Shown here piece after piece: positions 5,024-35,165 of a stretch of 64,000 bases of DNA. The stretch lies in assembly GCA_041567315.1 (NCBI GenBank), contig JBFGCA010000002.1, positions 8,055-72,054 on the forward strand, given 5' to 3'. Source of the stretch: Thermoanaerobaculia bacterium (GTDB lineage Bacteria; Acidobacteriota; Thermoanaerobaculia; Multivoradales; JAHEKO01). Every line of letters begins with the position of its first letter. Position 1 is the first letter of the stretch. The notes under the pieces were generated by a model. That model saw only the letters and a program-made list of their open reading frames with translations, had not been told where the DNA came from and searched no databases. The position numbers and the translations under genes were made by a program.

Positions 5024-5090
5024 TCGAGCTCTCCTTGCGGGTGGACCTCTACGCCCTACTAACGATGCGGCGCCGCCAGCCGTCTAGCCG

Positions 5091-6302: not shown

Positions 6303-6327
6303 CCCGCCTACGCTCCCACCGCGCCGC

Positions 6328-7607: not shown

Positions 7608-8227
7608 GGCCTCTCGGTCGCGTACTCGGGGAACCGCTTGAGCAGCTCCTCGCGCAGCTTCTTGCGGGCGCTGAACAGGTGGTTGCGCACCGTCGAGGCC
7701 CGGCAGCCGAGGATCGCCGCCACCTCGCGCGACGGCAGGCCCTCGAGGGCGCGCAGCACGAAGACCGCCCGCTGCCGGTCGCTGAGCCCGGCGGCCAGCT
7801 CTTCGAAGATGCGAGCCACCTCTTTTTCCTGCAGCGCCGCCAGATCGCGGCGGTGGCGCCAGTCGGCCACCCGCCGCAGGTGCCAGCGGAACGGCTCGCG
7901 GCCGCGCGCCTGGCTACGCCGCGAGCGCAGCTGATCGATCGCCAGGTTGGCGGTGATCCGGTAGAGCCAGGTGTTGGGGCTCCAGCGCGGCTCGAACCGC
8001 CGGCGGTGCTCCCAGACCCTGAGAAAGGCGGCCTGCACCACGTCCCGCGCCTCCTCGCGATCGCCCAGCAGCCGGGTGGCGAGCACCAGCAGCGGACCGG
8101 TCTTGCGCTCGATGAGACCGGCGAAGGCGTCTTCGTCGCCGCCGGCCACCGCCGCCAGGAGCTGGCGGTCGGTGGCTTGCCGCCAGCTGCGGCGGGCCTG
8201 GCGCGAGGAATAGGCGAGAACCGGCAA
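7604..8227 (-). CDS. RNA polymerase ECF-type sigma-70 factor
   Basis: 207 aa with sigma-70 region 2 (FAGLIERKTGPLLVLATRLLGDREEARDVVQAAFLRVWE) and region 4 (LSDRQRAVFVLRALEGLPSREVAAILGCRASTVRNHL). Confidence 0.9.
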   Translation of the reverse strand: MPVLAYSSRQARRSWRQATDRQLLAAVAGGDEDAFAGLIERKTGPLLVLATRLLGDREEARDVVQAAFLRVWEHRRRFEPRWSPNTWLYRITANLAIDQLRSRRSQARGREPFRWHLRRVADWRHRRDLAALQEKEVARIFEELAAGLSDRQRAVFVLRALEGLPSREVAAILGCRASTVRNHLFSARKKLREELLKRFPEYATERP

Positions 8228-8333
8228 GAGACCCCCTATTCGTTCCTGTACGATGAACCGGGCGGCACCGTCTAGTGGCGCTCCGCGCTCGCAGCACCCT
8301 CGGTCCCAGTCTAACGCCGCGCCGGCCGCCGCG

Positions 8334-17615: not shown

Positions 17616-18488
17616 ATGCCCGCCGGCCTGGTGCGCTCGCTGCGGCCCCATCAGTGGGCCAAGAACCTGTTCGTGCTGGCACCGCTGGTCTTCGGCCGCC
17701 AGCTCGACGACGCCGGTGCCCTGACCCGGGCGGCGCTGGCCTTCGCCGCCTTCTGCGCCGCCTCCAGCGCCGTCTATCTGTTCAACGACATCCGCGATCG
17801 CGAGGAGGACCGGCGCCATCCCCACACGCGCCAGCGGCCGCTGGCCGCCGGCACGCTGAGCGTCGGCGTCGCGGCCGCCGCCATCGCCCTGCTGGTAGCC
17901 CTGGCCGCGGCCGGCGGCGCCGCGCTGGGACCGCTCTTCGCGCTGCTGCTGGGCAGCTATCTGCTGCTCAACCTGCTCTACACGCTGGGCCTCAAGCAGG
18001 TGGTGATCCTCGACGTCATGGTGATCAGCATGGGCTTCGTGCTGCGGGTAGTGGCGGGCGCCGTCGCCGCCGAGGTGGCGGTGTCGGCCTGGCTGGTGCT
18101 GTGCACTACGTTTCTGGCGCTGTTTCTGGCCTTCTCCAAGCGCCGCCACGAGCTGCAGGTCATGGCCGACGAAGCGGCCGAAGGCCGGCGGGTCTTGAGC
18201 CACTACAGTCAGTCGTTCCTGGACCAGATGATCAACGTGGTCACCGCCTCCACGGTGGTCAGCTACGCGGTCTACGCCATCTCCCCGGAAACGGTCGAGA
18301 AGTTCCACACCCGCAACCTGATCTACACCATGCCGCTGGTGCTGTTCGGCATCTTCCGCTATCTCTACCTGATCTACCAGCGACCCGCCGAGCGCAACCC
18401 CACCGAGGCGATCCTGCGCGACCTGCCCTTCCTCGCCAACCTCGGGCTGTGGGTGCTGGCGGTGCTGTGGATCGTCTACCGCGGATAG
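17616..18488 (+). CDS. UbiA-family prenyltransferase, decaprenyl-phosphate 5-phosphoribosyltransferase (Rv3806c/DPPR synthase)-like
   Basis: HQWAKNLFVLAPLVFG and YLFNDIRDREEDRRHPHTRQRPLAAG match the hallmark NDxxDxxxD region and N-terminus of Rv3806c-type DPPR synthases. 8-9 TM helices. ATG at 17616. Confidence 0.78.
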   Translation: MPAGLVRSLRPHQWAKNLFVLAPLVFGRQLDDAGALTRAALAFAAFCAASSAVYLFNDIRDREEDRRHPHTRQRPLAAGTLSVGVAAAAIALLVALAAAGGAALGPLFALLLGSYLLLNLLYTLGLKQVVILDVMVISMGFVLRVVAGAVAAEVAVSAWLVLCTTFLALFLAFSKRRHELQVMADEAAEGRRVLSHYSQSFLDQMINVVTASTVVSYAVYAISPETVEKFHTRNLIYTMPLVLFGIFRYLYLIYQRPAERNPTEAILRDLPFLANLGLWVLAVLWIVYRG

Positions 18489-18496
18489 CGGCGCCC

Positions 18497-19573
18497 GTGG
18501 CGGAAGAGTCGGCGGCCGGCGAGCGGGGACCCTGGCGGCGGCTGCCGGCGTGGCTCACCCGCCCGCCGGCGCCGGGCCGGGTGCGGCCGGGTCTCTACGC
18601 CTTCGAGATCGTCGCCTGGCTGGCGCTGGCGGCGGCGGTCGTCTTCCTGCGCTGGCAGGGGCTCAACGTCGACTGGGTCACCGTCGACTACACCATCCCG
18701 CCGCTGATCGCGCCGACGCTCAAGGCGCTGGCCAGCGGCGTGGTGCTGTACGCCGTCTACCACCTGCTGCGGCGGCGGCCGCCCGGCGACTACCTGCGGC
18801 AGGTCTTCTCGCTCCCGTGGCTGCTGCTCGGCGCGCGGCTGTGGCTGACCTGTCTGGTCTTCACCTACGCCTACTTCTGGCTCAAGGTCTCGGTGCCGCT
18901 GGTCAACTGGCGGCTCTGGGACCGCGAGCTGTGGCGGCTCGACGTGCTGCTCCACGCCGGCTTCTCGCCGACCGTCTTCCTGGTCGAGCTGCTGGCCGGC
19001 ACCGGGCTGCTGCCGCTGCTCGAGCTCTGGTACAGCTGGTGGCTGCCGTCGACGATGTTCGGGCTGGCCTTCTTCTGCGCCTACCCCGACGCCCGCACCC
19101 GGCGCCGCTTCATGTTGAGCACCGTGCTGCTGTGGACGCTGGGCGCCTGGCTCTACGTGGCGCTGCCGGCGCTGGGGCCGGCCTACGTCTACCCCGAGGA
19201 GTTCGCCGAGGTGCGTGAGGAGATGCCGCGCGCCGCCGGCGCCCAGTCGATGCTGATGGACAACTACCAGAAGGTGCTGGCCGGCCGCACCGGCCCGCTC
19301 AAGCGTTTCAACCCCACTCGCGGGATCGCCGCCCTGCCGAGCCTCCACGTCGGCGGGCACTGGCTGCTGCTGCTGTGGGTGCGGCGGCGGGCGCGGCCGC
19401 TCTACCTGCCGGCCGCGCTCGGCACCGCCCTGACCTTCGTCGGCTCGATCGTCACCGGCTGGCACTACGCGGTCGACGGCTACGCCGGCATCATCGTTGC
19501 ACTGGCCGCCTACTGGACGGCGCTTGCCGTCGACCGCCGGCTGGGCGGCGAGGCCGACGCAGTCGAAGACTAA
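18497..19573 (+). CDS. PAP2-superfamily membrane phosphatase (Rv3807c-like polyprenyl-phospho-sugar phosphatase candidate)
   Basis: GTG start at 18497, 9 nt after the UbiA stop. PAP2 motifs PSLHVGGHW and GWHYAVDGYAG. Multiple TM helices. Confidence 0.62.
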   Translation: MAEESAAGERGPWRRLPAWLTRPPAPGRVRPGLYAFEIVAWLALAAAVVFLRWQGLNVDWVTVDYTIPPLIAPTLKALASGVVLYAVYHLLRRRPPGDYLRQVFSLPWLLLGARLWLTCLVFTYAYFWLKVSVPLVNWRLWDRELWRLDVLLHAGFSPTVFLVELLAGTGLLPLLELWYSWWLPSTMFGLAFFCAYPDARTRRRFMLSTVLLWTLGAWLYVALPALGPAYVYPEEFAEVREEMPRAAGAQSMLMDNYQKVLAGRTGPLKRFNPTRGIAALPSLHVGGHWLLLLWVRRRARPLYLPAALGTALTFVGSIVTGWHYAVDGYAGIIVALAAYWTALAVDRRLGGEADAVED

Positions 19574-19574
19574 G

Positions 19575-21137
19575 ATGAGAGGCCATCCGATGCTCACCGC
19601 GCTGCGCTTCTACGCCGTCGTCGCCACCACCGGGGCGGTGATCATGGCGCTCGAGATCATCTCCAGCCGGGTGCTGGCGCCCAGCTTCGGCAACAGCGTC
19701 TACGTCTGGGGCTCGATCATCAGCGTCTTCCTGGCGGCGCTGTCGGTGGGCTACTACCTGGGCGGCCGGCTGGCCGACCGGCAGCCGCGGCTGGCCAACC
19801 TGGGGCGGTTGATCCTCGCCGGCGCGGTCTGCGAGGTGGTGCTGCTGTTCGCCGGCACCCGTCTGGCCGAGGTTTTCGGCGGCTGGACCGGCAGCTCGCC
19901 GGGCGGCACCCTGCTGGCGGCCACCGTGCTGTTCGGGCCGCCGAGCCTCTTCCTGGCCACCGTCTCGCCCTTCGCGGTGCGGCTGGCGGCGCGCGACCTC
20001 GCCCATCTCGGCAACACCGCCGGGCGGCTGTTCGCGCTCTCCACCGCCGGCAGCCTGGTGGGAACCCTGGGCTGCACCTTCCTGCTCATCCCCTACCTTC
20101 GCCTCCAGCAGACGCTGGGGCTGCTGCTGCTGGCCACGGTGCTGACCGGCTGCCTGGCGGTGGCCGGCGAGTGGCGCCGCGAGCTGGCGGCGCTCGGCCT
20201 GGCGGCGGCGCTGGCAGTGGCGGCGGTGACCGGGATGGTCTCGCGGCCGGCGCGGGCGGAGGGAGTGCTGTTCGTCAAGGTGACGCCCTACCAGACGCTC
20301 CACATCCGCGAGTCCGGCAGCCAGCGGTTCATGCTCGGCGACCGCACGCTCTACTCGGCGGTCGACATGGAGACCGGCGAGGCGACGCTGCCGGTGCTGC
20401 GCTACGCGCCGGCGGCGCTGCTGCTCAAGCAGGACATCGAGAGCCTCCTGGTCCTGGGAATGGGCGGTGGCAGCATCGGCAAGCACCTGCGGGCCGGGCT
20501 CGGCGAGATCGAGGTCGACTACGTGGACATCGATCCGGCGGTGGCCGAGCTGGCCGAGCGCTTCCTGGGCTTCGAGGCCGGCCCCGGCGAGCGGGTCCAC
20601 GTCGACGACGCCCGGCAGTTCCTGCGCCGCAGCCAGCGCCGGTGGGACTACATTTTCGGCGACGCCTACATCGGGCTGTCGGTGCCCTTCCACCTGACCA
20701 CCACCGAGTTCTTCGCCGAGGTCAAGCGCCGTCTCGAGCCCGGCGGCGTCTTCGGGCTCAACCTGGCGGGCGGGCTGGAGGACCCCTTCTCGCGGGCCAT
20801 CTTCCACACCGTCAGCGAGAGCTTCCTCACCACCTACGCCTTCGGCGTGCGCGGCGCCGCCAACGTGGTGCTGCTGGCCATCGACCAGAAGCTGACCCTG
20901 CCCAAGCAGCAGATGCTCCAGCGCGGCCAGGAGCTCGACCGGCGGTGGCGCTTCGACCCGACGCTGACCTTGATCGCCTCGAGCCGCCTCGACGTCACCC
21001 TCGACCCGGCCGAGGCGGTGCTGCTGACCGACGCCTTCGCCCCCGCCAGCCACCTCATCATGCTCGGCGCGGGCAGCGGGGAGCGCACCCTCGAGGAGCT
21101 GCTGGGCACCAGCGGCGCGCTCCCGGGAGGCGGCTGA
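19575..21137 (+). CDS. membrane-fused spermidine synthase-like aminopropyltransferase
   Basis: N-terminal about 230 aa with 7 TM helices fused to a SpeE-like SAM-dependent domain (LVLGMGGGSIGKHL, DYVDIDPAVAELAERFLGF, FGDAY). Start at ATG 19575, or ATG 19590 with an AGAGG RBS. Confidence 0.72.
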   Translation: MRGHPMLTALRFYAVVATTGAVIMALEIISSRVLAPSFGNSVYVWGSIISVFLAALSVGYYLGGRLADRQPRLANLGRLILAGAVCEVVLLFAGTRLAEVFGGWTGSSPGGTLLAATVLFGPPSLFLATVSPFAVRLAARDLAHLGNTAGRLFALSTAGSLVGTLGCTFLLIPYLRLQQTLGLLLLATVLTGCLAVAGEWRRELAALGLAAALAVAAVTGMVSRPARAEGVLFVKVTPYQTLHIRESGSQRFMLGDRTLYSAVDMETGEATLPVLRYAPAALLLKQDIESLLVLGMGGGSIGKHLRAGLGEIEVDYVDIDPAVAELAERFLGFEAGPGERVHVDDARQFLRRSQRRWDYIFGDAYIGLSVPFHLTTTEFFAEVKRRLEPGGVFGLNLAGGLEDPFSRAIFHTVSESFLTTYAFGVRGAANVVLLAIDQKLTLPKQQMLQRGQELDRRWRFDPTLTLIASSRLDVTLDPAEAVLLTDAFAPASHLIMLGAGSGERTLEELLGTSGALPGGG

Positions 21138-21153
21138 GCCGAGGGAGGACCCC

Positions 21154-22335
21154 ATGCCGACCACGACCCGCGTCGCGCTCGCCCTGTTCGCCACCCTGAC
21201 CTGGACGTCGTCGCTGGCCGCCCGGACCGCGGAGGTCGCGGTCGAGCAGCCGGCCACGACTAGTGCCGGTGACACCAGCGCTGCCGAGACCGCGGCGGCC
21301 CCGCAGGAGCCGCCGCCCGGCGCCCGCTTCGAGGAGCGGGTGGAGGTCCGAGAGGTCCTGCTCGACGTCCTGGTCACCGACCGCCAGGGGCAGATCGTCG
21401 CCGGCCTCGACAAAGACGCCTTCGTGGTCGAGGAGGACGGCGAGGAGCGGGAGCTCACCGGGGCCCGGTTCTACAGCACCCGCTACGGCGAGCTGGGGAC
21501 CCCCGGCGCCGAGGAGGTGCCCGCCAGCCGCTACTTCATCTTCGTGTTCCACGACCAGCGGCTGGGGGTGACCTTCGCCGGCCGCATGGTCCGCCAGCAG
21601 CTCGACGCCGCCCGCCAGAGCCGCGCCTGGCTCGAAGACGGCATGCGGCCCTCGGACTGGGTGGCGGTGGCCAGCTACGACGTCAAGCTCAAGGTCCATC
21701 AGGACTTCACCCAGGACCGCGAGGCACTGGCGCGGGCCATGGACGACGCCGCGCGGAGCGTCCGGCCCGAGCCGCGGCGGCGCCGCGACCGCGAGGCGAT
21801 CCCGGTGGAGCTGCCCTCGCTGCTCCGCCATCTGCCCGACGATTTCGCGCTCCGCAAGCGGACGCCGCGGATGTACGAGGCCCTCCAGCTGCTGGCCGAG
21901 GCCAGCGGTCACATCGTGGGGCGCAAGAACCTGCTGCTGTTCTCGATCGGCTTCGGCGAGATCGACCGCGTCTCCGGCACCGTGCTCCCCGACCGCCGCT
22001 TCTACCCGCCGCTCGAGCGCGCCCTCAACGACAACAACGTGGCGGTCTACCCCATCGATCTCACCCCGACCGGCATCCGGCACCTGCAGAGCGACTTCCT
22101 CAACAAGCTGGCCTACGACACCGGCGGCGTCTACCACCGCAGCTTCGTGAGCTTCATCACCCCCCTGCGCGAGATCTCCGACGACACCAGCGGCTACTAC
22201 CTCCTCAGCTACCGCACCGAGCACCCGGCCGACGAAAGCGGCTTCCAGGAAGTCAAGGTCAAAGTGCAGCAGAAGGGGCTGCGGGTGCGGGCGCGCCGCG
22301 GCTACCTGTACGGGCCGGCGCCGGTGCGGCGCTGA
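21154..22335 (+). CDS. VWA domain protein (VWFA-related Acidobacterial domain family)
   Basis: Signal peptide MPTTTRVALALFATLTWTSSLAA. VWA-like fold (VLLDVLVTDRQGQ..., FIFVFHD, DWVAVASYDVKL) resembling the TIGR03436 architecture. Confidence 0.68.
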   Translation: MPTTTRVALALFATLTWTSSLAARTAEVAVEQPATTSAGDTSAAETAAAPQEPPPGARFEERVEVREVLLDVLVTDRQGQIVAGLDKDAFVVEEDGEERELTGARFYSTRYGELGTPGAEEVPASRYFIFVFHDQRLGVTFAGRMVRQQLDAARQSRAWLEDGMRPSDWVAVASYDVKLKVHQDFTQDREALARAMDDAARSVRPEPRRRRDREAIPVELPSLLRHLPDDFALRKRTPRMYEALQLLAEASGHIVGRKNLLLFSIGFGEIDRVSGTVLPDRRFYPPLERALNDNNVAVYPIDLTPTGIRHLQSDFLNKLAYDTGGVYHRSFVSFITPLREISDDTSGYYLLSYRTEHPADESGFQEVKVKVQQKGLRVRARRGYLYGPAPVRR

Positions 22336-22375
22336 CGGCGCTGAGGTCGGCGGTCCTTGCTGAAGGGTCGGTGGT

Positions 22376-22645
22376 GAGAGCCGACCGGGGCGGGGTGCGC
22401 CTGGGGACGCGGCGGGCCTGACGAACTCCAGAGGGGAGGCCCGCCGCTCCTTTCGCCTTCGCGCCAAACGGACCATAGCCTTCGGCGCTTGCCGCAAGCG
22501 CTCGTCTCAAGGCCACTGTCGAACCCCGCCCCGGCCGGCTCCTGCGCGGTCCGTGGCGACTGGCGCGCCAGGCAAGGGCGACCCCGCGGCCTCTCGACCC
22601 CAGGCGCGCACAGGGTGCGCAGCACTCTTACCTGATCTGCTTGCT
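22376..22645 (+). repeat. copy A of a ~280-350 bp dispersed non-coding repeat (second copy at 62141-62495)
   Basis: Shares with copy B a 5' module gagagccgRccggggcgggg..ggggacgcggcSggcctgacRgacttcagaggggaggccSgccgctcc and the block ccccRccccggccggctcctgcgcggtccgtg. Also shares a 3' cYcTctacctgatYctg module and a cgcaagcgc palindrome core. Confidence 0.8.
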
Positions 22646-22687
22646 CCTACTCCACGCTGCGGGCGGCCGGTGCATGCGACCAGGCTC

Positions 22688-24457
22688 TCATCGTCCGGTC
22701 AGCAGGCCGGTCACGAGGGCGGCTGAGAGGGCGGCGAGCATCCAAACGAGGCGGGCGCGTGGCGAGAGCGGGCGGGGGGCGATGGGGCCGAGGCGGCGGG
22801 CAAGGCCGGCGGCGAGGAGGGCGAGGAGGACGAGGGCGGCGGCGCCGAGGGCGGCGAGCCACCAGGCGTCGGGGGTGGCGAGGGCGCGCTGGAGGAGGAA
22901 GGAGTTCCTGGGCTCGAAGGAGAGGTAGGCGCGGGGGGGCCAGTGCGCCCAGTCCCAGGCCGCGGCCTGGAGGTAGCGGGCGCGGCCGTAGGTCTCGAGC
23001 AGCCGCAGGTGGAACTCGGTGAAGGGGACGAGGGTGCCGCTAACGGCGAGCAGGGCCGAGGCGGCGACGAGCGCGCGGCCGCCCCAGCGCCAGAGGGGCC
23101 GGGTGGGCGGCGTCTCGAAGAACGGGGCGCAGAGCAGGGCCAGGAGCGGCAGCGCCGGGACCAGGAAGCGCGGGCCCCAGCACCAGCCGCCGTGCCAGTC
23201 GCCCCAGCGGGCGTAGAGCAGGAGCAGGGCGGCCAGCGACCCCCAGGCGAGGAGGGTCGACGGCGGGTGCCGACGCCAGCCGGCGCGGGTGCAGGCGGCG
23301 GCCAGGAGCACGGTCGGGAAGTAGAGCAGCAGACCGCGGCCGGGGCTCGCCAGCAGACCGGCCAGGCCCTCGGTGAGCGGGCTGAACCAGCGGTCCATCT
23401 CGGCCTCGTAGCCGGTCCGCCAGGGACGGCCGAAGCGCGCCCAGTTGGACCAGCCGACCACCGCCAGCATGGCGAGCACCCCGGCGGCGAAGGCCAGGAT
23501 CGGCGGCAGCCCACGGCGCCCCGGCCACCGGCGGGCGACCGACCACAGGAGCACCGCGCCGCCGACCGGCAACAGGACGCCGTGCGCGATCTTGGCCAGG
23601 ACCGCGAGCCCCAGGGCGAGACCGGCCAGGAAGGCCGCCCACCGTGCAGGGCGGGAGACCGCACCCGGCGGGACATCCCCGGGCTGCGGCGCTACGGACT
23701 GCGGCGCGCCGGGCTGGGACGCGACCGGCTGGGTCCGGGCGGAGACGGCCTCGGCAGCGGCCTTCTCGCCGGCCGGCGTCCCAGCTGGCGTGTCGGTAGA
23801 CGGCCTGTCGGTCGACGGGGGCCGCCCGGTGGGGTCCGAATGCGGCGGAGTCGCCACCGCCCGCGCGGCGGCGAGCGCGAAGCCGACCAGCGCCAGGGCG
23901 GCCAGGGGCTCGGCGAAAAAGGTGCGGCCGTAGACCAGGAGCGGCGAGCCAAGCGTCGCCAGCAGCGCCACCGCGGCGGCGGTGCGGCGGCGGTACCCGA
24001 GCTCGAGCGCCAGCAGGAAGAGCAGCGCGCCGGTGGCCGCCACCACTACCGAGTTGGTCAGCGAGAGCGCGAAGAAGCCCCAGGCGTCGGCAGGCCGGTG
24101 CGGGTCGTACCACAGGAACTCCATGCCTTCGAAGACGGCCGTCGAGCGGGCCGGCGCCAGCGCCGCCAGCGCGCGGCCCAGCCACCAGAAGGGCACGCCG
24201 GCCAGCGACTGGCCGACGCCGTATTTGGCGTAGAGCCGGCCGTCGGGGCCGGGGAAGACGAAGCCCGGCGGCAGCCGCGGCTCGTCGACCCAGAGGCCGC
24301 CGTGCTCGGCCAGGGTCTGGGTCACCCGGCCCATCACCACCCCGTCGGGGCTGTGGACGAAGCCGCTGCCGGCGAGCGCCAGCGCCAGGGCGATGAGGGC
24401 GAAGAGCCAGACGGCGGGGCGGCCGCGCGCGGCGAGCGGTGGTCCGGAGGCGCTCAC
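22688..24457 (-). CDS. ArnT/PMT-like GT-C glycosyltransferase (GT39/GT83-like, polyprenyl-phosphate-sugar dependent)
   Basis: 589 aa with at least 11 TM helices. N-terminal loop VVMGRVTQTLAEHGGLWVDEP...YAKYGVGQSLAGVPFWWLG and ...GRTFFAEPLAALAL resemble ArnT/PMT_2 families. Start ATG 24457 overlaps the stop of the upstream GT-C (ATGA). Confidence 0.65.
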   Translation of the reverse strand: MSASGPPLAARGRPAVWLFALIALALALAGSGFVHSPDGVVMGRVTQTLAEHGGLWVDEPRLPPGFVFPGPDGRLYAKYGVGQSLAGVPFWWLGRALAALAPARSTAVFEGMEFLWYDPHRPADAWGFFALSLTNSVVVAATGALLFLLALELGYRRRTAAAVALLATLGSPLLVYGRTFFAEPLAALALVGFALAAARAVATPPHSDPTGRPPSTDRPSTDTPAGTPAGEKAAAEAVSARTQPVASQPGAPQSVAPQPGDVPPGAVSRPARWAAFLAGLALGLAVLAKIAHGVLLPVGGAVLLWSVARRWPGRRGLPPILAFAAGVLAMLAVVGWSNWARFGRPWRTGYEAEMDRWFSPLTEGLAGLLASPGRGLLLYFPTVLLAAACTRAGWRRHPPSTLLAWGSLAALLLLYARWGDWHGGWCWGPRFLVPALPLLALLCAPFFETPPTRPLWRWGGRALVAASALLAVSGTLVPFTEFHLRLLETYGRARYLQAAAWDWAHWPPRAYLSFEPRNSFLLQRALATPDAWWLAALGAAALVLLALLAAGLARRLGPIAPRPLSPRARLVWMLAALSAALVTGLLTGR

Positions 24458-26199
24458 CGCGGTAACGGTGGTCGCGGGACCTCGCCGCCCGGTCCCCCAG
24501 CTCCAGCCGTGCTGCCCCCGTCGCTGCCCGGCGCCGCCTCCGGGTCGGCCTCAGGGCCGGCCCCCATGCCGGCCTCCGGGTCCGCTGCTGGACCGGCCCC
24601 CGGGCCGGCCTCCGCCTCGACCCGGGCCAGCGGATGGCGGGTCCAGGGCGTGGCGAAGAGCACCAGCTCGTCGGCGCCCATGGTGACGTTGCGCGGGATC
24701 CGGAGCCCGTAGATTGGCCGGAAGCCGGTTCCCGGGCCGGTCAGCTCCGGGAACCACTCCGGGAAGATCACCAGGTAGTCGGGACGGCGTTCTTCGAGGA
24801 AACGGCGGACCCCGTCCTGCCAGGGGGCGCCGGCGGCGCGGGCGGCCCGGATGTAGCGCGGCACCTGCGGATCAACGATGCCGGCCAGGTCGAGCAGCCG
24901 GTTGGGCAGCAGGTACTGCAGGGCGCCGATGTCGTTGACCGCCAGGACCGCCTCCGGCGCCAGCCGCGGCGCCAGCCAGCGGGCCATGGCGACGTCGCTG
25001 TCGCGGACGTTGGCGACATTCTGAACATACCGCCCGGAGCCCTGCGCGAGGTGGACTATTGTCGGCAGCAGCACCAGGACGGCGGCGGCCGGCCGCCAGG
25101 CGAGCCGGCGGCGGCCGAGCCGCAGCCACGGCCCCACCGACTCCACCGCCCGCCCCGTCCCCAGCACGCCGAGCACCGCCACCACCGGCAGCAGGGGGAA
25201 GAAGTAGCGGCCGAAGTTGCCGGCCAGCAGGGCGCCGCCGGGTGGGTTGATCAACCCGTAGGCCAGCGGCAGGGCGGCCAGCCACAGCGCCGGCAGCAGC
25301 CCGGCGTCGCGGCGCCCGCCGAGGCGCTCGACGAGGGTGAGCGCCCCGGCGCCGGCCAGCAGCAGGGCCACCGGCTGCGGCCGGAAGAGGATCCCCAGCA
25401 CCGCGTAGAGGTAGCGGCCCTCGGGCAGCCAGCGGTGCACCCCCGAGGCCTTGGCCGCGAAGGTGGTCGGCAGCACCGAGCCGCTCACCGCCAGATGGAA
25501 GAGCGCCACCGGCAGCAGGACCACCGCCGCGCCCAGCAGCCCGGCGGCGAGCGCCCGGTCGGCCCGCAACCGCAGCGCCAGCCCGCCGGCGGGATGGCGC
25601 TCGAAGCGGAGTACCCGATCGGCCACCGCCAGCGCCAGCAGCAGCGCCCCTTCGGGGCGAGCCAGGGTGGCCAGGGCCAGCACCGGCAGCGCCAGCGGCG
25701 CCCGCCCCGGCCGGCGCCGCTCGCGCGCGTGGAGCCGCATCCCGACCAGGGTGAGGAGCACGAACAGCGGGATCTCGAGCCCCGACAGCGCGCCCCAGAC
25801 CAGCCAGCCGGTGGCCAGGGTCAGCCAGCCGGCGAGCCGGGCGAGGCCGCGCCCCGCCCCCAGCTCGGCGGCCAGGGCGCTGGCGGCGAGGCCGCCCCCG
25901 AGGTAGGCGACGGCGCCCAGCACCTTGACCCAGCCCACCGGGTTCCCCGGCAAAAGGAAGGCCAGAGCCAGCAGCGCGCTCCACAGCGGCGCCGTCGAGC
26001 CGGCTACCGGCTCGCCCCCCGGGGTGTAGGCGAGACCGCGGCCCGCCGCCAGGTTGCGCGCGAACTGGAGGTGGATCCAGCCGTCGTCCAAAGGGAAACC
26101 CGGGCCCTCGCCGAGGGCTCGCAGCTCGGCCGCCGTGTAGGCGGCGCAGGCGAGGACGCCGAACAGCAGCAGCACGAGCCGGGCCCGGCCCGGCGTCAT
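24454..26199 (-). CDS. ArnT/PMT-like GT-C glycosyltransferase, second paralog
   Basis: Start at ATG 26199 (MTPGRARLVLLLFGVLACAAYTAA). First periplasmic loop with acidic motif FPLDDGWIHLQFARNLAAGRGLAY typical of GT-C catalytic loops. At least 11 TM helices. Confidence 0.6.
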   Translation of the reverse strand: MTPGRARLVLLLFGVLACAAYTAAELRALGEGPGFPLDDGWIHLQFARNLAAGRGLAYTPGGEPVAGSTAPLWSALLALAFLLPGNPVGWVKVLGAVAYLGGGLAASALAAELGAGRGLARLAGWLTLATGWLVWGALSGLEIPLFVLLTLVGMRLHARERRRPGRAPLALPVLALATLARPEGALLLALAVADRVLRFERHPAGGLALRLRADRALAAGLLGAAVVLLPVALFHLAVSGSVLPTTFAAKASGVHRWLPEGRYLYAVLGILFRPQPVALLLAGAGALTLVERLGGRRDAGLLPALWLAALPLAYGLINPPGGALLAGNFGRYFFPLLPVVAVLGVLGTGRAVESVGPWLRLGRRRLAWRPAAAVLVLLPTIVHLAQGSGRYVQNVANVRDSDVAMARWLAPRLAPEAVLAVNDIGALQYLLPNRLLDLAGIVDPQVPRYIRAARAAGAPWQDGVRRFLEERRPDYLVIFPEWFPELTGPGTGFRPIYGLRIPRNVTMGADELVLFATPWTRHPLARVEAEAGPGAGPAADPEAGMGAGPEADPEAAPGSDGGSTAGAGGPGGEVPRPPLPR

Positions 26200-26300
26200 T
26201 CTCCAGCCGCTCCGGCGGCGGCAGTGGCCATGGGCAGCACCGCCGCCAGGTTTCCACAGGTCCGGGAGCGCCACAAGGCCGCTGCTAACATCCCGCGCCC

Positions 26301-27752
26301 ATGAAATCGCGGGGGACGAATCCGCCGGCCGAGAAGACGCCGCACGCGGCGGCCGCCCGCCGGCGGCGGGCTCGGCTCGGCCTCTACGGCGCCCTGGCGG
26401 CGGTGGTGCTCGGTCTGGCGCTCGCCGCCCGCTATCTCGACCGGCCCGAGGAGCCCCAGGAGGACCAGACCTGGTCGGACGTCGACTACGCGGCCCTGCC
26501 CGAGGTCCAGCTCCTCCAGCGCTACCTGCGCATCGACACCAGCCCGACCACGGGCAGCGAGCTGGAGGGCGCCCGTTTCCTGGCCGGAGTGCTCGAGGAG
26601 GCCGGCATTCCGGCCCACGTCGAGCGTCTCGGAGACCGGCAGGCCAACCTGTGGGCGGTGCTCGAAGGCGAGCTCCCGGAGGCGGTGGTCCTCCACCACC
26701 ACATCGACGTCTACCCGATCGACGACCCGGAGGCCTGGGACTTTCCGCCGTTCGGCGGGCAGATCGACCTCGCCTGGCTCTACGGCCGGGGCGCCTTCGA
26801 CATGAAGAGCGTCGCCATCGCCCAGCTCCAGGCGCTCCTCGAGCTCAAGCGCAGCGGCCAGCGGCCCCGGCGCTCGGTGATCTACCTGGCCACCGGCTCC
26901 GAGGAGGTCGGCAGCGAGCTGGGCACCCGCTGGATTCTTCGGCACCACCCCGAGCTGGTCGAGCGCTTCTGGGCGGTCCTCACCGAGGGCGGCATCGTCG
27001 AGCCGGTCAACCAGCGCGAGATCAAGTACTGGGGGATCGAATACAGCCAGAAACGCTTCGCCGTCGGCCACGCCTGCGCCACCGACCGCCAGCGGCTCGA
27101 GGAGCTGCGCGAGGACCTGATGGAGTGGGAGGCGACCGCCGCCCGGCGCCGGCTGACCCCCGAGGTGGACCGCTTCCTGACCGCCTACGCCGAGTCGCGC
27201 CGCGACGTGGACATCCGCGAGGTCCTCGCCGAGACCCGGCGCGCCCTCGACCACACGGCCGATTTCGAGGCGCTGCCCGGCTACCTGAAGTCGATGTTCC
27301 GCGACGAGCTGGTGGCCTACCCGGTCGAGGAGGACCGCGACGGCGGCTTCCGGATGCGGCTGGTCTTCCATCTGTTGCCGGGGAGCGATTTCGCCGACGT
27401 CCGTCCGCGGCTGCTACCGCCCTGGCTGACCCACGGCGTCGCGGTCCGGCTCGAGGAGCCGCTGGGCAGCCCGGCGGCCAGTCCGGTGGACCACCCGGCC
27501 TACCGGGCCCAGGAGGAGCTGCTGCGCGAGGCCTATCCGGAGGCCAGGGTGGGGCCCTACTTCCTGGCCTGGGTGGCCACCGACTCGCGCTTCTTTCGCG
27601 AGGCCGGGATCCCCTCCTACGGCTTCTCCCCGTTCCTCATCTTCAACACCGACACCTTCCGGGTGGACACCATCAACGAACGCATCGGGCTGCCCGGATA
27701 CGTCGGTGGCGTCGAGCTGTACGGCCGGCTGCTGAGGCGTCTCGCCGGCTGA
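26301..27752 (+). CDS. M20 family metallopeptidase (membrane-anchored), paralog 1
   Basis: N-terminal TM LGLYGALAAVVLGLALAA. LQRYLRIDTS...HHIDVYP...GRGAFDMKSVAIAQL...YLATGSEEVGS motifs of M20/M28 peptidases (ArgE/DapE/CPG2-like). Confidence 0.8.
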   Translation: MKSRGTNPPAEKTPHAAAARRRRARLGLYGALAAVVLGLALAARYLDRPEEPQEDQTWSDVDYAALPEVQLLQRYLRIDTSPTTGSELEGARFLAGVLEEAGIPAHVERLGDRQANLWAVLEGELPEAVVLHHHIDVYPIDDPEAWDFPPFGGQIDLAWLYGRGAFDMKSVAIAQLQALLELKRSGQRPRRSVIYLATGSEEVGSELGTRWILRHHPELVERFWAVLTEGGIVEPVNQREIKYWGIEYSQKRFAVGHACATDRQRLEELREDLMEWEATAARRRLTPEVDRFLTAYAESRRDVDIREVLAETRRALDHTADFEALPGYLKSMFRDELVAYPVEEDRDGGFRMRLVFHLLPGSDFADVRPRLLPPWLTHGVAVRLEEPLGSPAASPVDHPAYRAQEELLREAYPEARVGPYFLAWVATDSRFFREAGIPSYGFSPFLIFNTDTFRVDTINERIGLPGYVGGVELYGRLLRRLAG

Positions 27753-27972: not shown

Positions 27973-28515
27973 ATGATGAAGCTCAACAGACGCCGGGGTC
28001 AGCGGGGTTTCACCCTGATCGAGCTGCTGATCGTGGTGGCGATCATCGGAATCATCGCCGCCATTCTGATCCCCAACCTTCTGGATGCCCTCCAGAAGGC
28101 CAAGCAGAAGCGGACCGTCGGCGACGAGCGCAACGTCGGCTCGGCCTGGTTCTCGTGGCTCACCGACCAGATCGGAGCGGCCGCCGCCGGCACCACCAAC
28201 ACCTACGACTTCAGCGCCCTGACCGCCATCGCCGCCGGTGACCTGCTGACCACGTTGTACCGAGACGAAGAGATGTTCTACATCCAGGAGATCCCGGTCA
28301 ACGACGGCTGGGGCAACGGCTACGAGTACGCCTGGTCGGGCAACGTGCTGACGGCGCAGGTCATGGGCATCCGCAGCGCCGGTCGGAGCACCGACGGCAG
28401 CTTCGCGGGCAACTCCTACACCATGGGGCCGTTCATCGCCACCGACTACGACCAGGACATCGTCTGGGCGGACGGCTTCTTCGTCACCTACCCGGCCGGC
28501 GTCAACGTCCAGTAG
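27973..28515 (+). CDS. pilA: type IV major pilin PilA (class III signal peptide, N-methylation motif)
   Basis: AGGAGG RBS 10 nt upstream. MMKLNRRRGQRGFTLIELLIVVAIIGIIAAILIPNLL is a canonical prepilin leader with the G/FTLIE cleavage site and Glu+5. About 180 aa. Confidence 0.9.
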   Translation: MMKLNRRRGQRGFTLIELLIVVAIIGIIAAILIPNLLDALQKAKQKRTVGDERNVGSAWFSWLTDQIGAAAAGTTNTYDFSALTAIAAGDLLTTLYRDEEMFYIQEIPVNDGWGNGYEYAWSGNVLTAQVMGIRSAGRSTDGSFAGNSYTMGPFIATDYDQDIVWADGFFVTYPAGVNVQ

Positions 28516-28632: not shown

Positions 28633-30009
28633 GTGATTCCACGCCCCGCCGCCGGCCTGCTGCCCGCCGGCCTGCTACTGGTCTCGCTGCTGGCGGCGGC
28701 GCCGGCCGCGGCGAGCGGCGCCCTCGGACAGGAGGCCGCCTGGCTGCAGCGCTACCTGCGGCTCGACACCTCCAATCCACCGGGCGACGAGGCGCGGGCG
28801 GCGCGCTTCCTGGCCGAGCTGCTGCACCGCGAAGGGCTGACCACCCGGCGGGCGGTCTCGCCCGGCGGCCGCACCAGCCTGTGGGCGCGGCTCGAGTCCG
28901 GCCGGCCCGAGGCCGGCGCGCTGCTGCTCCAGCACCACATCGACGTGGTCCCGCCGGGGCCGGGGTGGAGCACCGATCCCTTTGCCGGCGAGGTGCGGGA
29001 CGGCGTGCTCTGGGGTCGTGGCGCGATCGACGCCAAGAGCCTGGGAATCGCCCATCTGGCCGCCCTGGTCGAGCTGCGCCGGCGCCGGGTCCCGCTGGCC
29101 CGCGACGTCGTCTTCCTGGCGGTGGCCGACGAGGAGACCGGCGGCCGCGAGGGTACCGCCTGGCTGCTGGAGGCGCACCCCGAGCTGTTCGCGGGGGTCG
29201 CGGCGGTGCTCGGCGAGGGCGGTCTCAACCGCTCCTATCAGGGGCGCCTGGCCTGGTGGGGAATCGAGACCGCCCAGAAGCGCCCGCTGTGGCTGCGCGT
29301 CATCGCCGCCGGCCGCGGCGGCCACGGCTCGACCCTCAACCTCCACGCCGCCCCTCACCGCCTGGTGCGCGGTCTGGGCCGGCTGGTCGACCGGCCGCTC
29401 GACTACCGCGTGACCCCCGAGGTGCGACGCTACATGGAGGCCGCCGCCCCCCACGAGACCGCCCACTTCCAGCGGCTGGTGGCGAACCTCGACGAGGTGG
29501 TCACCGGACCGGAGCCCGAGCGCCACCTGCTGCCGGGCATGCCCAACTACTTCCTCGACACCATCCAGGTCAACGTGCTGGCGGCGGGCGAGAAGCTCAA
29601 CGTGGTCCCCGAGGAGGCGGTCGCCGAGATCGACGTGCGGCTGCTTCCCGACACCGACCAGCAGGCCTTTCTGGAAGAGATCCGCCAACTGCTCGGCGAC
29701 GAGGTGGAGGTGGAGGTGCTGCTCGACGCTCCGCCGGTGACCGCCTCGCCGCTCGACAACCCGATCTGGCGCTGTCTCGAGACCACCCTCGGCCCGCGCG
29801 CAGCAGTGGTCCCGGCCTTCATCCCGGGGATCACCGACGCCCGCTACTTCCGGGGCCGCGGGCTGGCGGCCTACGGGTTCTCGCCCTTCGTCCTCGCCGC
29901 CGCCGAGCTCAAGGGCATCCACGGGCCCGACGAGCGCATCCCGCTGGCGGCGTTCGAGCAGGGCGTGGCGCTGATGAAGACGCTGGTGCGGGCATGCGCC
30001 GGCGGCTAG
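28633..30009 (+). CDS. M20 family metallopeptidase (secreted), paralog 2
   Basis: Signal peptide MIPRPAAGLLPAGLLLVSLLAAAPAAASGA. LQRYLRLDTSNPPGDE, HHIDVVP, GRGAIDAKS, VADEETGG motifs. Paralogous to 26301-27752. Confidence 0.8.
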   Translation: MIPRPAAGLLPAGLLLVSLLAAAPAAASGALGQEAAWLQRYLRLDTSNPPGDEARAARFLAELLHREGLTTRRAVSPGGRTSLWARLESGRPEAGALLLQHHIDVVPPGPGWSTDPFAGEVRDGVLWGRGAIDAKSLGIAHLAALVELRRRRVPLARDVVFLAVADEETGGREGTAWLLEAHPELFAGVAAVLGEGGLNRSYQGRLAWWGIETAQKRPLWLRVIAAGRGGHGSTLNLHAAPHRLVRGLGRLVDRPLDYRVTPEVRRYMEAAAPHETAHFQRLVANLDEVVTGPEPERHLLPGMPNYFLDTIQVNVLAAGEKLNVVPEEAVAEIDVRLLPDTDQQAFLEEIRQLLGDEVEVEVLLDAPPVTASPLDNPIWRCLETTLGPRAAVVPAFIPGITDARYFRGRGLAAYGFSPFVLAAAELKGIHGPDERIPLAAFEQGVALMKTLVRACAGG

Positions 30010-32402
30010 GGCTGCCTGCCACCGGCTTCCCGCTGCTGGCCGGCACCCTCACCGTCGGCGTCTTCTACGGCGGCTTCCTGCGCGGTCCGGTGGTGCCGGC
30101 CGTCCGCGACGTCCCCTTCTTCCACCTGCCGCTGCGCGACGCCTTCGCCACCTTCGCCCGGCAGGGCGTGCCGTGGTGGAACCCGCTGATCCACGGCGGG
30201 CAGCCGCTGCTCTCCAACCCCAACTACGCCGCTTTCTACCCGCCGACCTGGCTCGCCCTGGCCCTGGCGCCGCACCGCGCCCTCGCCCTGATCGTGGTCC
30301 TCCACGCCGTCTGGGCCTTTGCCGGCGCCTGGCGGCTGGCGCGCACCCTCGAGTGCCGGCCGCCGGCCGCGGCGCTGGCGGCGGTGGGGTTCGTCGGCGG
30401 CGGCGCCTTCCTCTCCTCCCCCACCACCCTCAACCTGTTCTGCGGCCTCGCCTGGCTGCCCTGGGTGCTGACCTGGGGCGAGCGGGCGCTGAGCGCCGGG
30501 CGCGGGCAGTGGGCACGACCGGCCGTGCTGGCCGGCGCCGGCCTCGCCGCTCAGCTGTTGGCCGGCGAGCCGGTGATGGCGCTGATCGGGGCCGCGGCCC
30601 TGGCCTGCTGGGCCGGCGAGCGGGCGCGCCACGGTCCCGGCCGGCCGCTGCGCCTGGTGCCCGTCGCCCTCATCGCCGGCGGGCTGGCCGCGGTCCAGCT
30701 GCTGCCCACCGCCCAGCGGCTGCTCGAGTCGCCCCGCGCCGGCGGCCTGGCCGGCACCGGAGCCACCGTCTGGTCGACGCCGCCGGCGCGGGCGGTGGAA
30801 TTCGCGCTGCCGCGCTTCTTCGGCGACCCGATGCTCGAGGATCTGGATCTCTACTTCGGCTACGGGCTCCACGACAAGGACTTTCCCTACGTGGTGTCGA
30901 TCTACTGCGGTCTGCTGCCGGTGCTGCTGGGCCTGGTCGCCCTCGCCCGCTGGCGGCTGCCGCGGCGGGCTGCCTGGTGGGCGATGCTGGCACTCGGCGC
31001 GGCGCTCGCCCTGGGCCGGCACAACCCGCTCTACGCCGGCCTGCTGATCCACCTGCCGCCGTTCAACCTGGTCCGCTATCCGGAGAAGTTCATCCTGCTG
31101 GCGACCAGCGCGCTGCCCTTCGCCGCGGCGCTGGGCTGGGAGGAGCTGATGCGGCGGCGGCGAGCCGGCCGGCCCCAGGCCGCCGAGCTGCCGCTGGCGC
31201 TGGCCCTGGTGGCGGTCGCCGTCACCGGCGGTCTCGCCGCGCTGCTCGCCTGGCGACCCACGGTCGGCGAGCAGTTCGTGCGGCTGCACAGCCTCCTGCC
31301 GCGCTCGCCCGAGGGCCTGGCGGCGGCGGTCGGCTATCTGCAGCGCGAGGCACTGGCGGCGACCGCGGTGGCGGCCGCGGCGGCGGCGCTGCTGGCGCTG
31401 CACCGCTGGCGGCAGGCGCCGGGCGCGCTGCTCGCCGGTCTGGCGCTCGTGCTGCTCGGCGGCGACCTCTTCTACTACGGCCGGACCCTCAACCCGCTGC
31501 TCCCCGCCCGCGAGGTGCTGACGCCGCCGGCGATGGCCGAGCGGGCGGCCGGCGGCGGCGGCCGGATCTTCACCGACCGCGCCTTCCACCAGGGCCGCGC
31601 CGAGTTCACCTTTCGCGGCACCGAGCCGCAGGTGACCGCCTGGCTGCGCAACGGCCTCGACCGCCTCGACCCCTTCGCCGCCAACCTGTGGGGTCTGGCC
31701 TACGCGCTCAACGAGGACTACGACCTGATGTTGACCGCCTGGGGGCGGCACGGTCTGGACCGCTTTTACGAGGCCGCGCGGCAAGGCGGCGTGGAGGGCG
31801 AGGCGGCGCGGCGGGTGCTCGGCGCCTGGGGCGTCGGCGCCCTGGCGCTGCGGCGCCCGGCCCGCGAGGTGGCGGCCGAATGGGCGGCCGGCGGCGGCAC
31901 CCCCGACCTGGTGCGGCTGGTGGCCAATCCCGGACGGCTGCCGCTCGTCCGGCTGGCGCCCGAGGTGTTGATCCACGACACGGTCGAGGCGGCGACCGCC
32001 GCCCTCGGCGCCGCCGGCTTCGCCGTGGACCGCCTCGAGCACTGCGGCCCGGCCCTGCCGCCGGCCGCGCCCGGCAGGCTGCGCTCCCCCGCCGACGCCC
32101 GGCTGCTCGAGCACCGGCCGGGACCCGGCACCCACCGGCTCTCCTATCGCGCTTCGGGCCCCGCCCTCCTGGTGGTGGCCGAGACCTTCGACCGCGGCTG
32201 GGAGGCCCGCGCCGGCGATCGCCGGCTGCCGGTCTGCCCCACCGCCCTCGGACAGCTCGGGGTGCTGCTGCCGCCCGGCCAGGGCGAGCTCACGCTTGCC
32301 TATCGGGATCCCTGGGTGAAGGTCGGGGCGGCCCTCACCCTGATCACGGCGCTGGCCGGCGCGCTTACAATCGTCCGGCCGGCGCGCCAAACCGACCGCT
32401 GA
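29994..32402 (+). CDS. large polytopic membrane protein, YfhO-like / GT-C-fold putative glycosyltransferase (paralog of 14909-17545)
   Basis: About 802 aa from ATG 29994 (MRRRLGLPATGFPLLAGTLTV...), overlapping the M20 paralog 2 3' end by 16 nt. Shared motif HGGQPLLSNPNYAAFYPPTWL. At least 12 TM helices plus a C-terminal periplasmic domain. Confidence 0.5.
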   Translation: MRRRLGLPATGFPLLAGTLTVGVFYGGFLRGPVVPAVRDVPFFHLPLRDAFATFARQGVPWWNPLIHGGQPLLSNPNYAAFYPPTWLALALAPHRALALIVVLHAVWAFAGAWRLARTLECRPPAAALAAVGFVGGGAFLSSPTTLNLFCGLAWLPWVLTWGERALSAGRGQWARPAVLAGAGLAAQLLAGEPVMALIGAAALACWAGERARHGPGRPLRLVPVALIAGGLAAVQLLPTAQRLLESPRAGGLAGTGATVWSTPPARAVEFALPRFFGDPMLEDLDLYFGYGLHDKDFPYVVSIYCGLLPVLLGLVALARWRLPRRAAWWAMLALGAALALGRHNPLYAGLLIHLPPFNLVRYPEKFILLATSALPFAAALGWEELMRRRRAGRPQAAELPLALALVAVAVTGGLAALLAWRPTVGEQFVRLHSLLPRSPEGLAAAVGYLQREALAATAVAAAAAALLALHRWRQAPGALLAGLALVLLGGDLFYYGRTLNPLLPAREVLTPPAMAERAAGGGGRIFTDRAFHQGRAEFTFRGTEPQVTAWLRNGLDRLDPFAANLWGLAYALNEDYDLMLTAWGRHGLDRFYEAARQGGVEGEAARRVLGAWGVGALALRRPAREVAAEWAAGGGTPDLVRLVANPGRLPLVRLAPEVLIHDTVEAATAALGAAGFAVDRLEHCGPALPPAAPGRLRSPADARLLEHRPGPGTHRLSYRASGPALLVVAETFDRGWEARAGDRRLPVCPTALGQLGVLLPPGQGELTLAYRDPWVKVGAALTLITALAGALTIVRPARQTDR

Positions 32403-33179: not shown

Positions 33180-33210
33180 GAGGCCGGTCCCACCCTTCGA
33201 GGCGCCGGGC

Positions 33211-35102: not shown

Positions 35103-35165
35103 TCGGTCGTGATCGGTGACCGGAAGCGCGACAACGGGTCCGGAGCGAGCGTGATGGGAGGCGGC

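Follow-up and report, generated by a model that had tools for sequence, protein, structure and literature searches.

A fused MFS/spermidine synthase-like protein at a Thermoanaerobaculia envelope-glycosylation locus: sequence evidence for a candidate extracytoplasmic N-methyltransferase rather than an aminopropyltransferase

The closest characterised analogue of the protein examined here is fungal. NHMT of Aspergillus nidulans (AN4663) consists of a seven-transmembrane (7TM) domain (residues 1-215) and a spermidine synthase (SpdS)-like domain, and it was shown genetically to be the N-terminal histidine methyltransferase of secreted lytic polysaccharide monooxygenases (LPMOs) (Batth et al. 2023, PMC10349129). 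The same authors reported that loss of an acidic residue (D/E, replaced by Ile322) separates the methyltransferase from spermidine synthase, and that the 7TM domain is fungus-specific and has no fold matches (PMC10349129). Polyprenyl-phosphate-linked pentofuranoses are used by three-component systems for ribofuranose, xylofuranose or arabinofuranose side chains, each made up of a phosphoribosyltransferase, a flippase and a GT-C-type glycosyltransferase (GT-C) (Kelly et al. 2024, PMC11127046), and by the mycobacterial decaprenylphosphoryl-arabinose (DPA) pathway, which comprises Rv3806c, Rv3807c, DprE1/E2, Rv3789 and AftA-D/Emb (PMC11127046). In Pseudomonas aeruginosa, group IV pilin is modified with D-arabinofuranose by the GT-C TfpW together with PsPA7_6245-6249, and homologues of Rv3806c and Rv3807c supply the lipid-linked donor. 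Here we analysed a 64-kb stretch of DNA (contig JBFGCA010000002.1 of assembly GCA_041567315.1; the whole stretch is hereafter called the window) in which a gene for a fused major facilitator superfamily (MFS)/SpdS-like protein is the third of four closely spaced genes, preceded by genes of the UbiA and PAP2 families and followed by a gene for a von Willebrand factor type A (VWA) protein. The names of homologues place the organism in Thermoanaerobaculia, Acidobacteriota. An earlier note on this DNA had suggested that the third gene product adds an aminopropyl group to a lipid-linked intermediate or glycan. The best reading of the present results is that it is a predicted S-adenosylmethionine (SAM)-dependent N-methyltransferase acting outside the cytoplasm.

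The fused protein is a member of a named but uncharacterised bacterial family; literature searches on bacterial fused MFS/spermidine synthase proteins returned nothing relevant. Its match to the NF037959 model ("fused MFS/spermidine synthase") spans residues 21-494 and model positions 2-480 of 480, with the MFS-type membrane domain N-terminal to the SpdS-like domain. The AlphaFold2 (AF2) model (pLDDT 86, pTM 0.81) has seven transmembrane (TM) helices in residues 2-217, followed by an SpdS fold that includes its N-terminal beta domain, in agreement with the earlier description of an SpdS-like domain fused to a 7-TM module. In an alignment of 25 orthologues (53-66% identity), TM1 and TM2 were extremely conserved (MALEI.SSR..AP.FGNSVYVWGSIISVF), and the GGRLADRxP sequence of the TM2-TM3 loop fits MFS motif A. 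Conserved positions in the catalytic domain were G290, G292, G294, D315, D340, W352-D353, D358-x-Y-I-G and P366-F-H-x-T-T. Both ends of an MFS half lie in the cytoplasm. Because this half is followed by a seventh helix that crosses the membrane, the SpdS-fold domain is predicted to lie on the periplasmic side; the charge bias agrees, since the mean number of K+R was 10.1 on the face formed by the N-terminus and loops L2-3, L4-5 and L6-7 and 3.6 on the other face.

In spermidine synthases, the acidic residue of the GGG(D/E)G motif binds the aminopropyl amine of decarboxylated SAM (dcSAM) and disfavours SAM. The earlier note had named the corresponding loop (GMGGGS in the window protein) as a check on its proposal, and the check went against it. 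HMMER aligned position 293, a Gly in the window protein, with the Glu of the Thermus thermophilus GGGEG motif. The position was G, S or A in 25/25 orthologues and was non-acidic in every related-locus copy whose motif could be located, actinobacterial and planctomycete copies among them. Among 150 representatives of the family it was G in 96, A in 39, S in 6, P in 4 and another residue in 5, with D or E in none. The "DP" of the T. thermophilus DLTDP box is deleted in the family, so that the second Asp of the box is lost; the first is kept as D358. The SpeE equivalog models scored far below their cutoffs (TIGR00417, 31.1 vs. 249.55; PRK00811, 38.9 vs. 260), and further SpeE-type models also stayed below theirs (PRK03612, 53.7 vs. 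472; PRK04457, 68.5 vs. 304). The Pfam Spermine_synth match was just over its cutoff (26.6 vs. 22.9) and on a par with the matches to Methyltransf_12 and Methyltransf_25. The SpdS fold itself, in which a Rossmann-like seven-strand domain comes after an N-terminal beta domain, is present in the model. Compared with SpeE of known structure (T. thermophilus 1uir/3anx and Escherichia coli 3o4f), the window protein therefore lacks both the dcSAM-selecting acid and the second Asp of the DSTDP box, and it differs further in being fused to an MFS half and in its predicted outward-facing orientation.

The best match of the family profile among PDB sequences was the C-terminal domain of human METTL13 (MT13-C, PDB 5wcj; E 7e-21), the eEF1A N-terminal methyltransferase, whose catalytic domain is homologous, shares the GLGGGS motif with the family profile and was crystallised with S-adenosylhomocysteine. 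For the comparison with NHMT, the AN4663 sequence was rebuilt from machine-read DNA in the supplement of the published paper, with 13 ten-base blocks repaired. The family profile aligned with it by hhalign with a probability of 98.1% (E 1e-13; 26% identity over 199 columns), from residue 232 to 434 in the window protein and from 244 to 471 in NHMT. In this alignment, VDIDP of the window protein falls on VEIDP of NHMT, which holds E340, the post-I acidic residue for the SAM ribose, and the conserved NHMT segment 389-394 falls on the invariant AYIGLS (359-364) of the window protein. The two proteins also resemble each other in overall plan: about 215 residues with seven TM helices, then an SpdS-like seven-beta-strand domain, 558 aa in NHMT and 515 aa here. 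Both lack the D/E of GxG(D/E)G, and their soluble domains are homologous; the motif-I residue in its place is Ile in NHMT and Gly in the window protein. NHMT would act in the lumen, as judged from its secreted substrates, from which the signal peptide has been cleaved, and the lumen is topologically equivalent to the periplasm. No LPMO context was found at the window locus. Because the dcSAM-selecting acid is lost and the nearest relatives of known structure or function without it are methyltransferases, aminopropyl transfer is disfavoured, and the loss of the acid argues for SAM as a methyl donor.

By eye, the loop after the second TM helix of the rebuilt NHMT sequence (residues about 60-75) contains KDIVDRVSGRK, which resembles MFS motif A, and the published view that the 7TM domain has no relatives may deserve a second look.

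A search of 1.84 billion representative sequences returned 4,535 clusters (50% identity) at E <= 1e-30. Among the 150 best representatives, 18 (about 12%) carry a tandem double TM domain of about 13 TM helices ahead of the catalytic domain, and one such member has both Pfam MFS_1 and Spermine_synth on record. The existence of these tandem versions suggests that the single-copy form is a homodimer that would rebuild a full MFS-like unit. Tandem members include P0130, P0136, P0143 and P0153 (a further locus is L163, 508-2811), and some are 800-1000 aa long with additional inserts between the TM and catalytic parts. As for distant members of the family, P0134 lies immediately downstream of BacA, an undecaprenyl-diphosphate phosphatase (L164, 339-2758). 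P0138 comes immediately after a group of lasso-peptide-like genes (Transglut_core3, NTP_transf_5 and an Asn_synthase-type cyclase) and precedes a PrmA/PRMT-like methyltransferase gene (L165, 976-8237), a context that hints that some family members act on exported peptides.

The window has a G+C content of 74%, and its raw open reading frame lists are crowded with spurious frames; real genes were told from these by third-position G+C content (GC3). All four genes of the run and their family assignments hold (Table 1), as the earlier note had described them. The tight packing also stands, with somewhat different values: the spacers from stop to start are 8, 16 and 16 nt, where gaps of 9, 2 and 17 nt had been given. 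An alternative in-frame ATG of the fused gene at 19575 would yield 520 aa and reduce the second spacer to 1 nt, and the start at 19590 is backed by orthologue alignments and public gene calls. Such spacing makes co-transcription of the four genes plausible. Scanning 17300-22800 for promoters and terminators gave no hit, a result that is uninformative at this G+C content. The run does diverge, as noted earlier, from a YfhO-like gene on the minus strand; 8 of the 15 members of the latter's family match YfhO (PF09586; best E 1.3e-7), and the window copy itself has only a sub-threshold match to DUF2079. The VWA protein has an apparent N-terminal signal peptide by eye, and no usable match among PDB sequences was found for it.

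Table 1. Coordinates of the fused gene, its parts and the surrounding genes in the 64-kb window
Feature	Position	Strand	Details
Fused MFS/SpdS-like protein	19590-21137	+	515 aa from ATG 19590; NF037959 213.7 bits vs. cutoff 40
TM domain	19590-20240	+	residues 1-217; six-helix MFS half and seventh TM helix
Block MALEIISSR...VWGSIISVF	19644-19730	+	most conserved part of the protein
MFS motif A, GGRLADRQPR	19761-19790	+	TM2-TM3 loop
SpdS-fold catalytic domain	20265-21041	+	residues 226-484
Motif I, LGMGGGS	20454-20474	+	G293 in place of D/E of GGG(D/E)G
DYVDID	20517-20534	+	within the SpdS-fold domain
WDYIFGDAYIGLSVPFHLTT	20643-20702	+	contains D358
UbiA	17616-18488	+	290 aa; PF01040 98 bits; NCBIfam equivalog NF008977 307.8 bits vs. 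cutoff 234
PAP2_3	18497-19573	+	GTG start at 18497; 358 aa; PF14378 85 bits; putative membrane phosphatase/phosphotransferase
VWA protein	21154-22335	+	393 aa; TIGR03436 acidobact_VWFA 146.4 bits vs. cutoff 81.25, residues 62-384
YfhO-like large polytopic membrane protein	14909-17617	-	probably GT-C-type; likely start 17545; divergent from UbiA
GTC1 polytopic membrane protein	22688-24457	-	589 aa; NF047440 LA_3751/3752 31.9 bits vs. cutoff 200
AftB-like GT-C glycosyltransferase (GTC2)	24454-26274	-	start probably 26199; AftB by profile and fold
M20-family peptidase/deacylase	26301-27752	+	PF01546 81 bits; hydrophobic, anchor-like N-terminal stretch (by eye)
Type IV pilin	27973-28515	+	PF07963 N_methyl E 3.8e-10, prepilin N-methylation motif
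Second YfhO-like membrane protein	29994-32402	+	paralogue of 14909-17617, with which it clusters; frame and GC3 analysis
Prepilin peptidase PilD	32406-33179		next after the second YfhO-like gene; Pfam A24_N_bact and Peptidase_A24

Relatives of the fused protein were collected from 80 genome loci and 2 metagenome loci; the window proteins were searched against them, and all of their genes were called and clustered. Neighbours were counted within 5 kb of the SpdS-like gene in the 48 Thermoanaerobaculia-type loci with at least 3 kb of flank on either side of it. A DegT/DnrJ/EryC1 sugar aminotransferase gene was present in 26/48 loci and directly adjacent in 22/48, and in 10 of 16 divergent DegT-SpdS pairs the intergenic distance was 22-77 nt. 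An M20 peptidase was present in 22/48 loci, a homologue of the AftB-like GT-C in 20/48 and a pilin gene in 17/48. The DegT, M20 and GT-C partners persist although gene order differs among the loci. UbiA and PAP2 were found in 7/48 and 4/48 loci, respectively, and VWA in 0/48; no VWA gene stood beside the SpdS-like gene in any related locus, and the sole other trace of one was a weak match 9 kb away in a single locus (L058). Because UbiA and PAP2 neighbours are few and VWA is absent from the relatives, the four-gene unit is specific to the lineage of the window. The earlier note had proposed to look for the four families as a cassette across genomes; a recurrent cassette was rejected, since VWA never co-occurs and only a minority of loci have UbiA or PAP2 nearby.

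A neighbour-joining tree of the fused proteins placed the window protein in a clade with those of L001, L003, L004, L005, L008, L011, L012 and L042, in which UbiA, often together with PAP2, precedes the fused gene. UbiA is also near the fused gene in four deep-branching loci (L041, L046, L062 and L064), and this distribution over the tree points to an old supercluster that has been fragmented in most lineages. A fuller arrangement is seen in L085, which reads BC-, YfhO-like-, UbiA+, PAP2+, fusion+, DegT-, GT-C- and M20+. A separate scan with PAP2 showed that, of the 11 closest metagenome loci (at least 52% identity), 7 have UbiA directly upstream; no locus below 50% identity does. The slot held by DegT in L001, L003, L004, L042 and L085 is taken in the window by the VWA gene and GTC1. 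GTC1, like VWA, was within 5 kb of the SpdS-like gene in 0/48 loci, and it has no homologue in the 82 related loci; the two genes look like lineage-specific insertions or a replacement of the DegT slot.

The DegT protein of the related loci scores 372 bits to PF01041. Against the PseC, WecE, DesI and ArnB models its scores are all about 180-200 bits, below cutoff, and it resembles ordinary nucleotide-sugar 4-aminotransferases. We considered that DegT might aminate a DprE1-type 2-keto lipid intermediate to give an amino-pentofuranose; this was not adopted, given that no DprE1-like oxidase was found and that the DegT scores are ordinary. Extra envelope genes were observed near DegT and the fused gene, upstream of DegT in L010, L013, L015, L022, L023, L031, L036 and others: an LPG_synthase_TM "flippase-like" gene, DUF362, a PMT_2+TPR GT-C, a large membrane protein and a class I methyltransferase. 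In two close relatives, L005 (6919-10000) and L008, UbiA-PAP2 and the fused gene are separated by genes for a membrane-anchored protein of the sulfatase family and a GT2 polyprenyl-phosphate glycosyltransferase (AglJ/PpgS/ArnC-like).

The surrounding genes are consistent with the polyprenyl-phosphate-sugar context that the earlier note had proposed. UbiA is over the cutoff of the decaprenyl-phosphate phosphoribosyltransferase (DPPRS) equivalog, and this family membership indicates a DPPRS/PPPRS-type polyprenyl-phosphate phosphoribosyltransferase. In PAP2_3, P281-S-L-H284 and H323-Y-A-x-D327 were invariant in 17 orthologues; its profile had no usable PDB match, and the protein had no NCBIfam match. 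It is probably the 5-phosphatase for the UbiA product, as suggested by its position beside UbiA. The AftB-like GT-C has no Pfam match. Its profile, built from 20 orthologues, had a single PDB match, to AftB, an arabinofuranosyltransferase of mycobacteria (9dlf; E 7.8e-4), across the first-loop DD..I.L...RNL..G.G motif. The AF2 model of the protein (pLDDT 82.8) had AftB as its best Foldseek match (9dlh; E 5e-7), followed by ALG12, AglB, ArnT and oligosaccharyltransferase (OST) subunits, and several orthologues are called "arabinofuranosyltransferase" by JGI. By sequence and model, it is a GT-C closest to enzymes that use polyprenyl-phosphate-arabinofuranose, with a predicted donor specificity. 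The YfhO-like gene is divergent from UbiA in the UbiA loci with upstream flank, including L001, L003, L004, L008, L042, L062, L064, L071, L085-L087 and L089; the YfhO-like profile had only spurious WD40 and Phd matches among PDB sequences. GTC1, which is convergent with the VWA gene, has only weak glycosyltransferase-like similarity, and no Pfam or PDB sequence match was found for it. A Pro/Thr/Ser/Ala-rich low-complexity insert of about 65 residues (TPPHSDPTGRPPSTDRPSTDTPAGTPAGEK...; residues about 205-270) was observed within this polytopic protein.

Compared with the DPA pathway and the three-component systems, the window shares a UbiA above the DPPRS cutoff, a candidate membrane phosphatase gene in the next position, as Rv3807c follows Rv3806c, and a GT-C whose nearest solved relative is AftB. 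It differs in that the candidate phosphatase is of the PAP2_3 type and in the extra partners found at the window locus or in relatives, namely the MFS-SpdS fusion, DegT, M20 and the YfhO-like proteins. The likeness to the TfpW system lies in a GT-C gene close to the major pilin gene; the block GTC2-, M20+, pilin+ of the window is seen again at related loci. In contrast to that system, DprE1/E2 is not among the annotated window genes, and genes for lipopolysaccharide (LPS), WaaA, LpxK, LpxL and GT9, are equally close.

A type IV pilus supercluster surrounds the locus (3380-6359, 27973-28515 and 32406-46115), with genes for PilB, PilC, pilin, PilD, a PAS histidine kinase, minor pilins (PilW- and PilY1-like; one is 1600 aa long) and a sigma-54 response regulator. 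Two M20 peptidase genes and a YfhO-like gene are interspersed between those for pilin and PilD. Directly upstream, 8214-12697 encodes WaaA (Kdo transferase), LpxK, an LpxL-type acyltransferase and a GT9 heptosyltransferase-like protein, and, going by these neighbouring genes, LPS and pilin are equally plausible acceptors. Leader cleavage and methylation of type IV pilins occur on the cytoplasmic face and are performed by PilD. N-methylation of pilin N-termini by the fused enzyme was rejected, as this is a cytoplasmic-face process and a PilD with its N-terminal domain is present.

Taken together, the explanation that we favour, with somewhat better than even confidence, is an envelope-glycosylation, type IV pilus and LPS supercluster of Thermoanaerobaculia, of which the locus would be a section, that includes an outward-facing SAM-dependent N-methyltransferase. 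PAP2_3 would strip the 5-phosphate from the UbiA product, and the resulting polyprenyl-phosphate-pentofuranose would serve the AftB-like GT-C, and probably also the YfhO-like proteins, on the periplasmic face. Without conversion by an epimerase encoded elsewhere, the donor sugar would be ribofuranose; the neighbouring genes offer type IV pilin and LPS as candidate acceptors. The SpdS-fold domain keeps the SAM-type nucleotide-binding motifs and the general-base Asp (D358) and lacks the dcSAM-selecting acid; the fused enzyme would then most likely N-methylate an amine with SAM, as do the METTL13 C-terminal domain and fungal NHMT. The MFS half probably homodimerises and may hand SAM or the substrate to the catalytic domain. 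Because DegT is a persistent and often closely divergent partner, we favour, with low confidence, an amino group on a glycoconjugate made with the linked DegT and AftB-like GT-C as the substrate. The choice is speculative: gene neighbours favour an amino sugar, and characterised relatives favour a protein N-terminus.

Several observations weigh against this explanation. Topology, cofactor and substrate are all predicted. To our knowledge, SAM is not available in the bacterial periplasm, and an outward-facing enzyme would need a supply route. The TM domain of the window protein is clearly an MFS half, and it was not aligned with that of NHMT by either hmmsearch or hhalign. The N-terminal beta domain specific to SpdS and the base Asp are kept, which leaves room for the transfer of an alkyl group other than methyl. 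No DegT homologue was found anywhere in the 64-kb window, which weakens the case for an amino-sugar substrate here, and about half of the related loci have none of the proposed partners within 10 kb. The three distant single-MFS members of the family lie in unrelated contexts, and their neighbourhoods have no common theme. The phosphatase role of PAP2_3 rests on its adjacency to UbiA, which is seen in the closest relatives only. Unlike the DPA pathway and the three-component systems, the window had no DprE1/DprE2-like FAD-dependent oxidase or epimerase of the short-chain dehydrogenase/reductase (SDR) type among its annotated genes and no MATE, SMR or GtrA-type flippase among the gene calls between about 9.0 and 32.4 kb, although a flippase gene may lie outside that stretch.

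The missing flippase bears on a different explanation, in which the MFS-like domain flips polyprenyl-phosphate-pentofuranose or exports another solute and the SpdS-fold domain is a non-catalytic binding or regulatory module. Known systems need a flippase, no part of the protein is more conserved than the TM domain, which is a genuine MFS half, tandem-MFS versions exist, and the gene directly follows UbiA-PAP2 here. However, G290, G292, G294, D315, D340, D353, D358 and the PFH motif are invariant in the 25 orthologues and mostly kept in the 150 representatives, which argues for catalysis, and the family is mostly found away from UbiA; we therefore regard a protein that is chiefly a transporter as improbable. 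We give similarly little credence to a dcSAM-dependent aminopropyltransferase acting on a polyprenyl-phosphate-linked intermediate or a finished glycan, the chemistry put forward in the earlier note. The complete SpdS fold with its N-terminal beta domain, the alignment of D358 with the leading Asp of the D-x-T-D-P box in SpeE, the position 16 nt after UbiA-PAP2 (an order that recurs in a clade of relatives) and the frequent AftB-like GT-C neighbour are all compatible with it. Against this stand the absence of the D/E of GGG(D/E)G from every homologue checked (25/25 orthologues; 0/150 acidic), the deleted second Asp, SpeE equivalog scores far below cutoff, and the fact that the closest relatives without the acid are methyltransferases. 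Moreover, dcSAM in the periplasm would be as unexplained as SAM, and there was no speD-like gene among the annotated window genes. The anatomy given by the earlier note thus stands and its glycan-pathway context stands in part, whereas its aminopropyl chemistry fails at the two checks that the note itself had proposed.

An alternative that keeps the outward-facing SAM-dependent N-methyltransferase and changes its substrate is less easily set aside, although we still consider it unlikely. Methylation would fall on an exported protein, at its N-terminus or N-terminal residue, perhaps after trimming by M20, and the glycosylation genes would be mere neighbours. The METTL13 C-terminal domain and NHMT, which both lack the acidic residue, have protein N-termini as their targets, an M20 peptidase that looks membrane-anchored lies within 5 kb in 22/48 loci, and one distant family member is found in the lasso-peptide-like cluster beside the PrmA/PRMT-like gene. 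On the other hand, it is not obvious what the most persistent partner, DegT (adjacent in 22/48 loci), would contribute to methylating protein N-termini. PilD, which the window encodes, processes those of pilins from the cytoplasmic side, and no conserved gene next to the fused one offers a candidate substrate protein. The favoured explanation, an N-methyltransferase within the envelope-glycosylation supercluster, also has a more specific form, which we put forward tentatively and with considerable doubt: a self-supplying periplasmic methylation machine. In it, the homodimer or the tandem 13-TM form, as a complete MFS-like transporter, would deliver SAM, or a lipid-linked amino sugar that it flips, directly to the outward methyltransferase domain, where an amino sugar placed on pilin or LPS by the GT-C would be N-methylated.

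The genes for making and transferring the pentofuranose donor belong to an already known kind of system. With them, the locus extends polyprenyl-phosphate-pentofuranose glycosylation to Acidobacteriota and links it with genes for type IV pilin and LPS and with the new partners DegT, M20 and the MFS-SpdS fusion. The reinterpretation of the fused protein as a methyltransferase is moderately interesting, as a testable lead rather than a demonstrated novelty. Because the residue that defines dcSAM use is absent from 150/150 representatives checked, thousands of bacterial proteins annotated as "spermidine synthase" or "fused MFS/spermidine synthase" (4,535 clusters at E <= 1e-30) are probably not polyamine makers. 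A class I SAM-type enzyme that is predicted to be periplasmic and is joined to half a transporter raises the question of how a cofactor is supplied outside the cytoplasm, a question that applies equally to the biotechnologically relevant fungal NHMT. If the self-supplying machine were true, it would mean SAM-dependent methylation outside the cytoplasm in bacteria, and it would provide a mechanism for a family of more than 4,500 clusters and, by extension, for NHMT.

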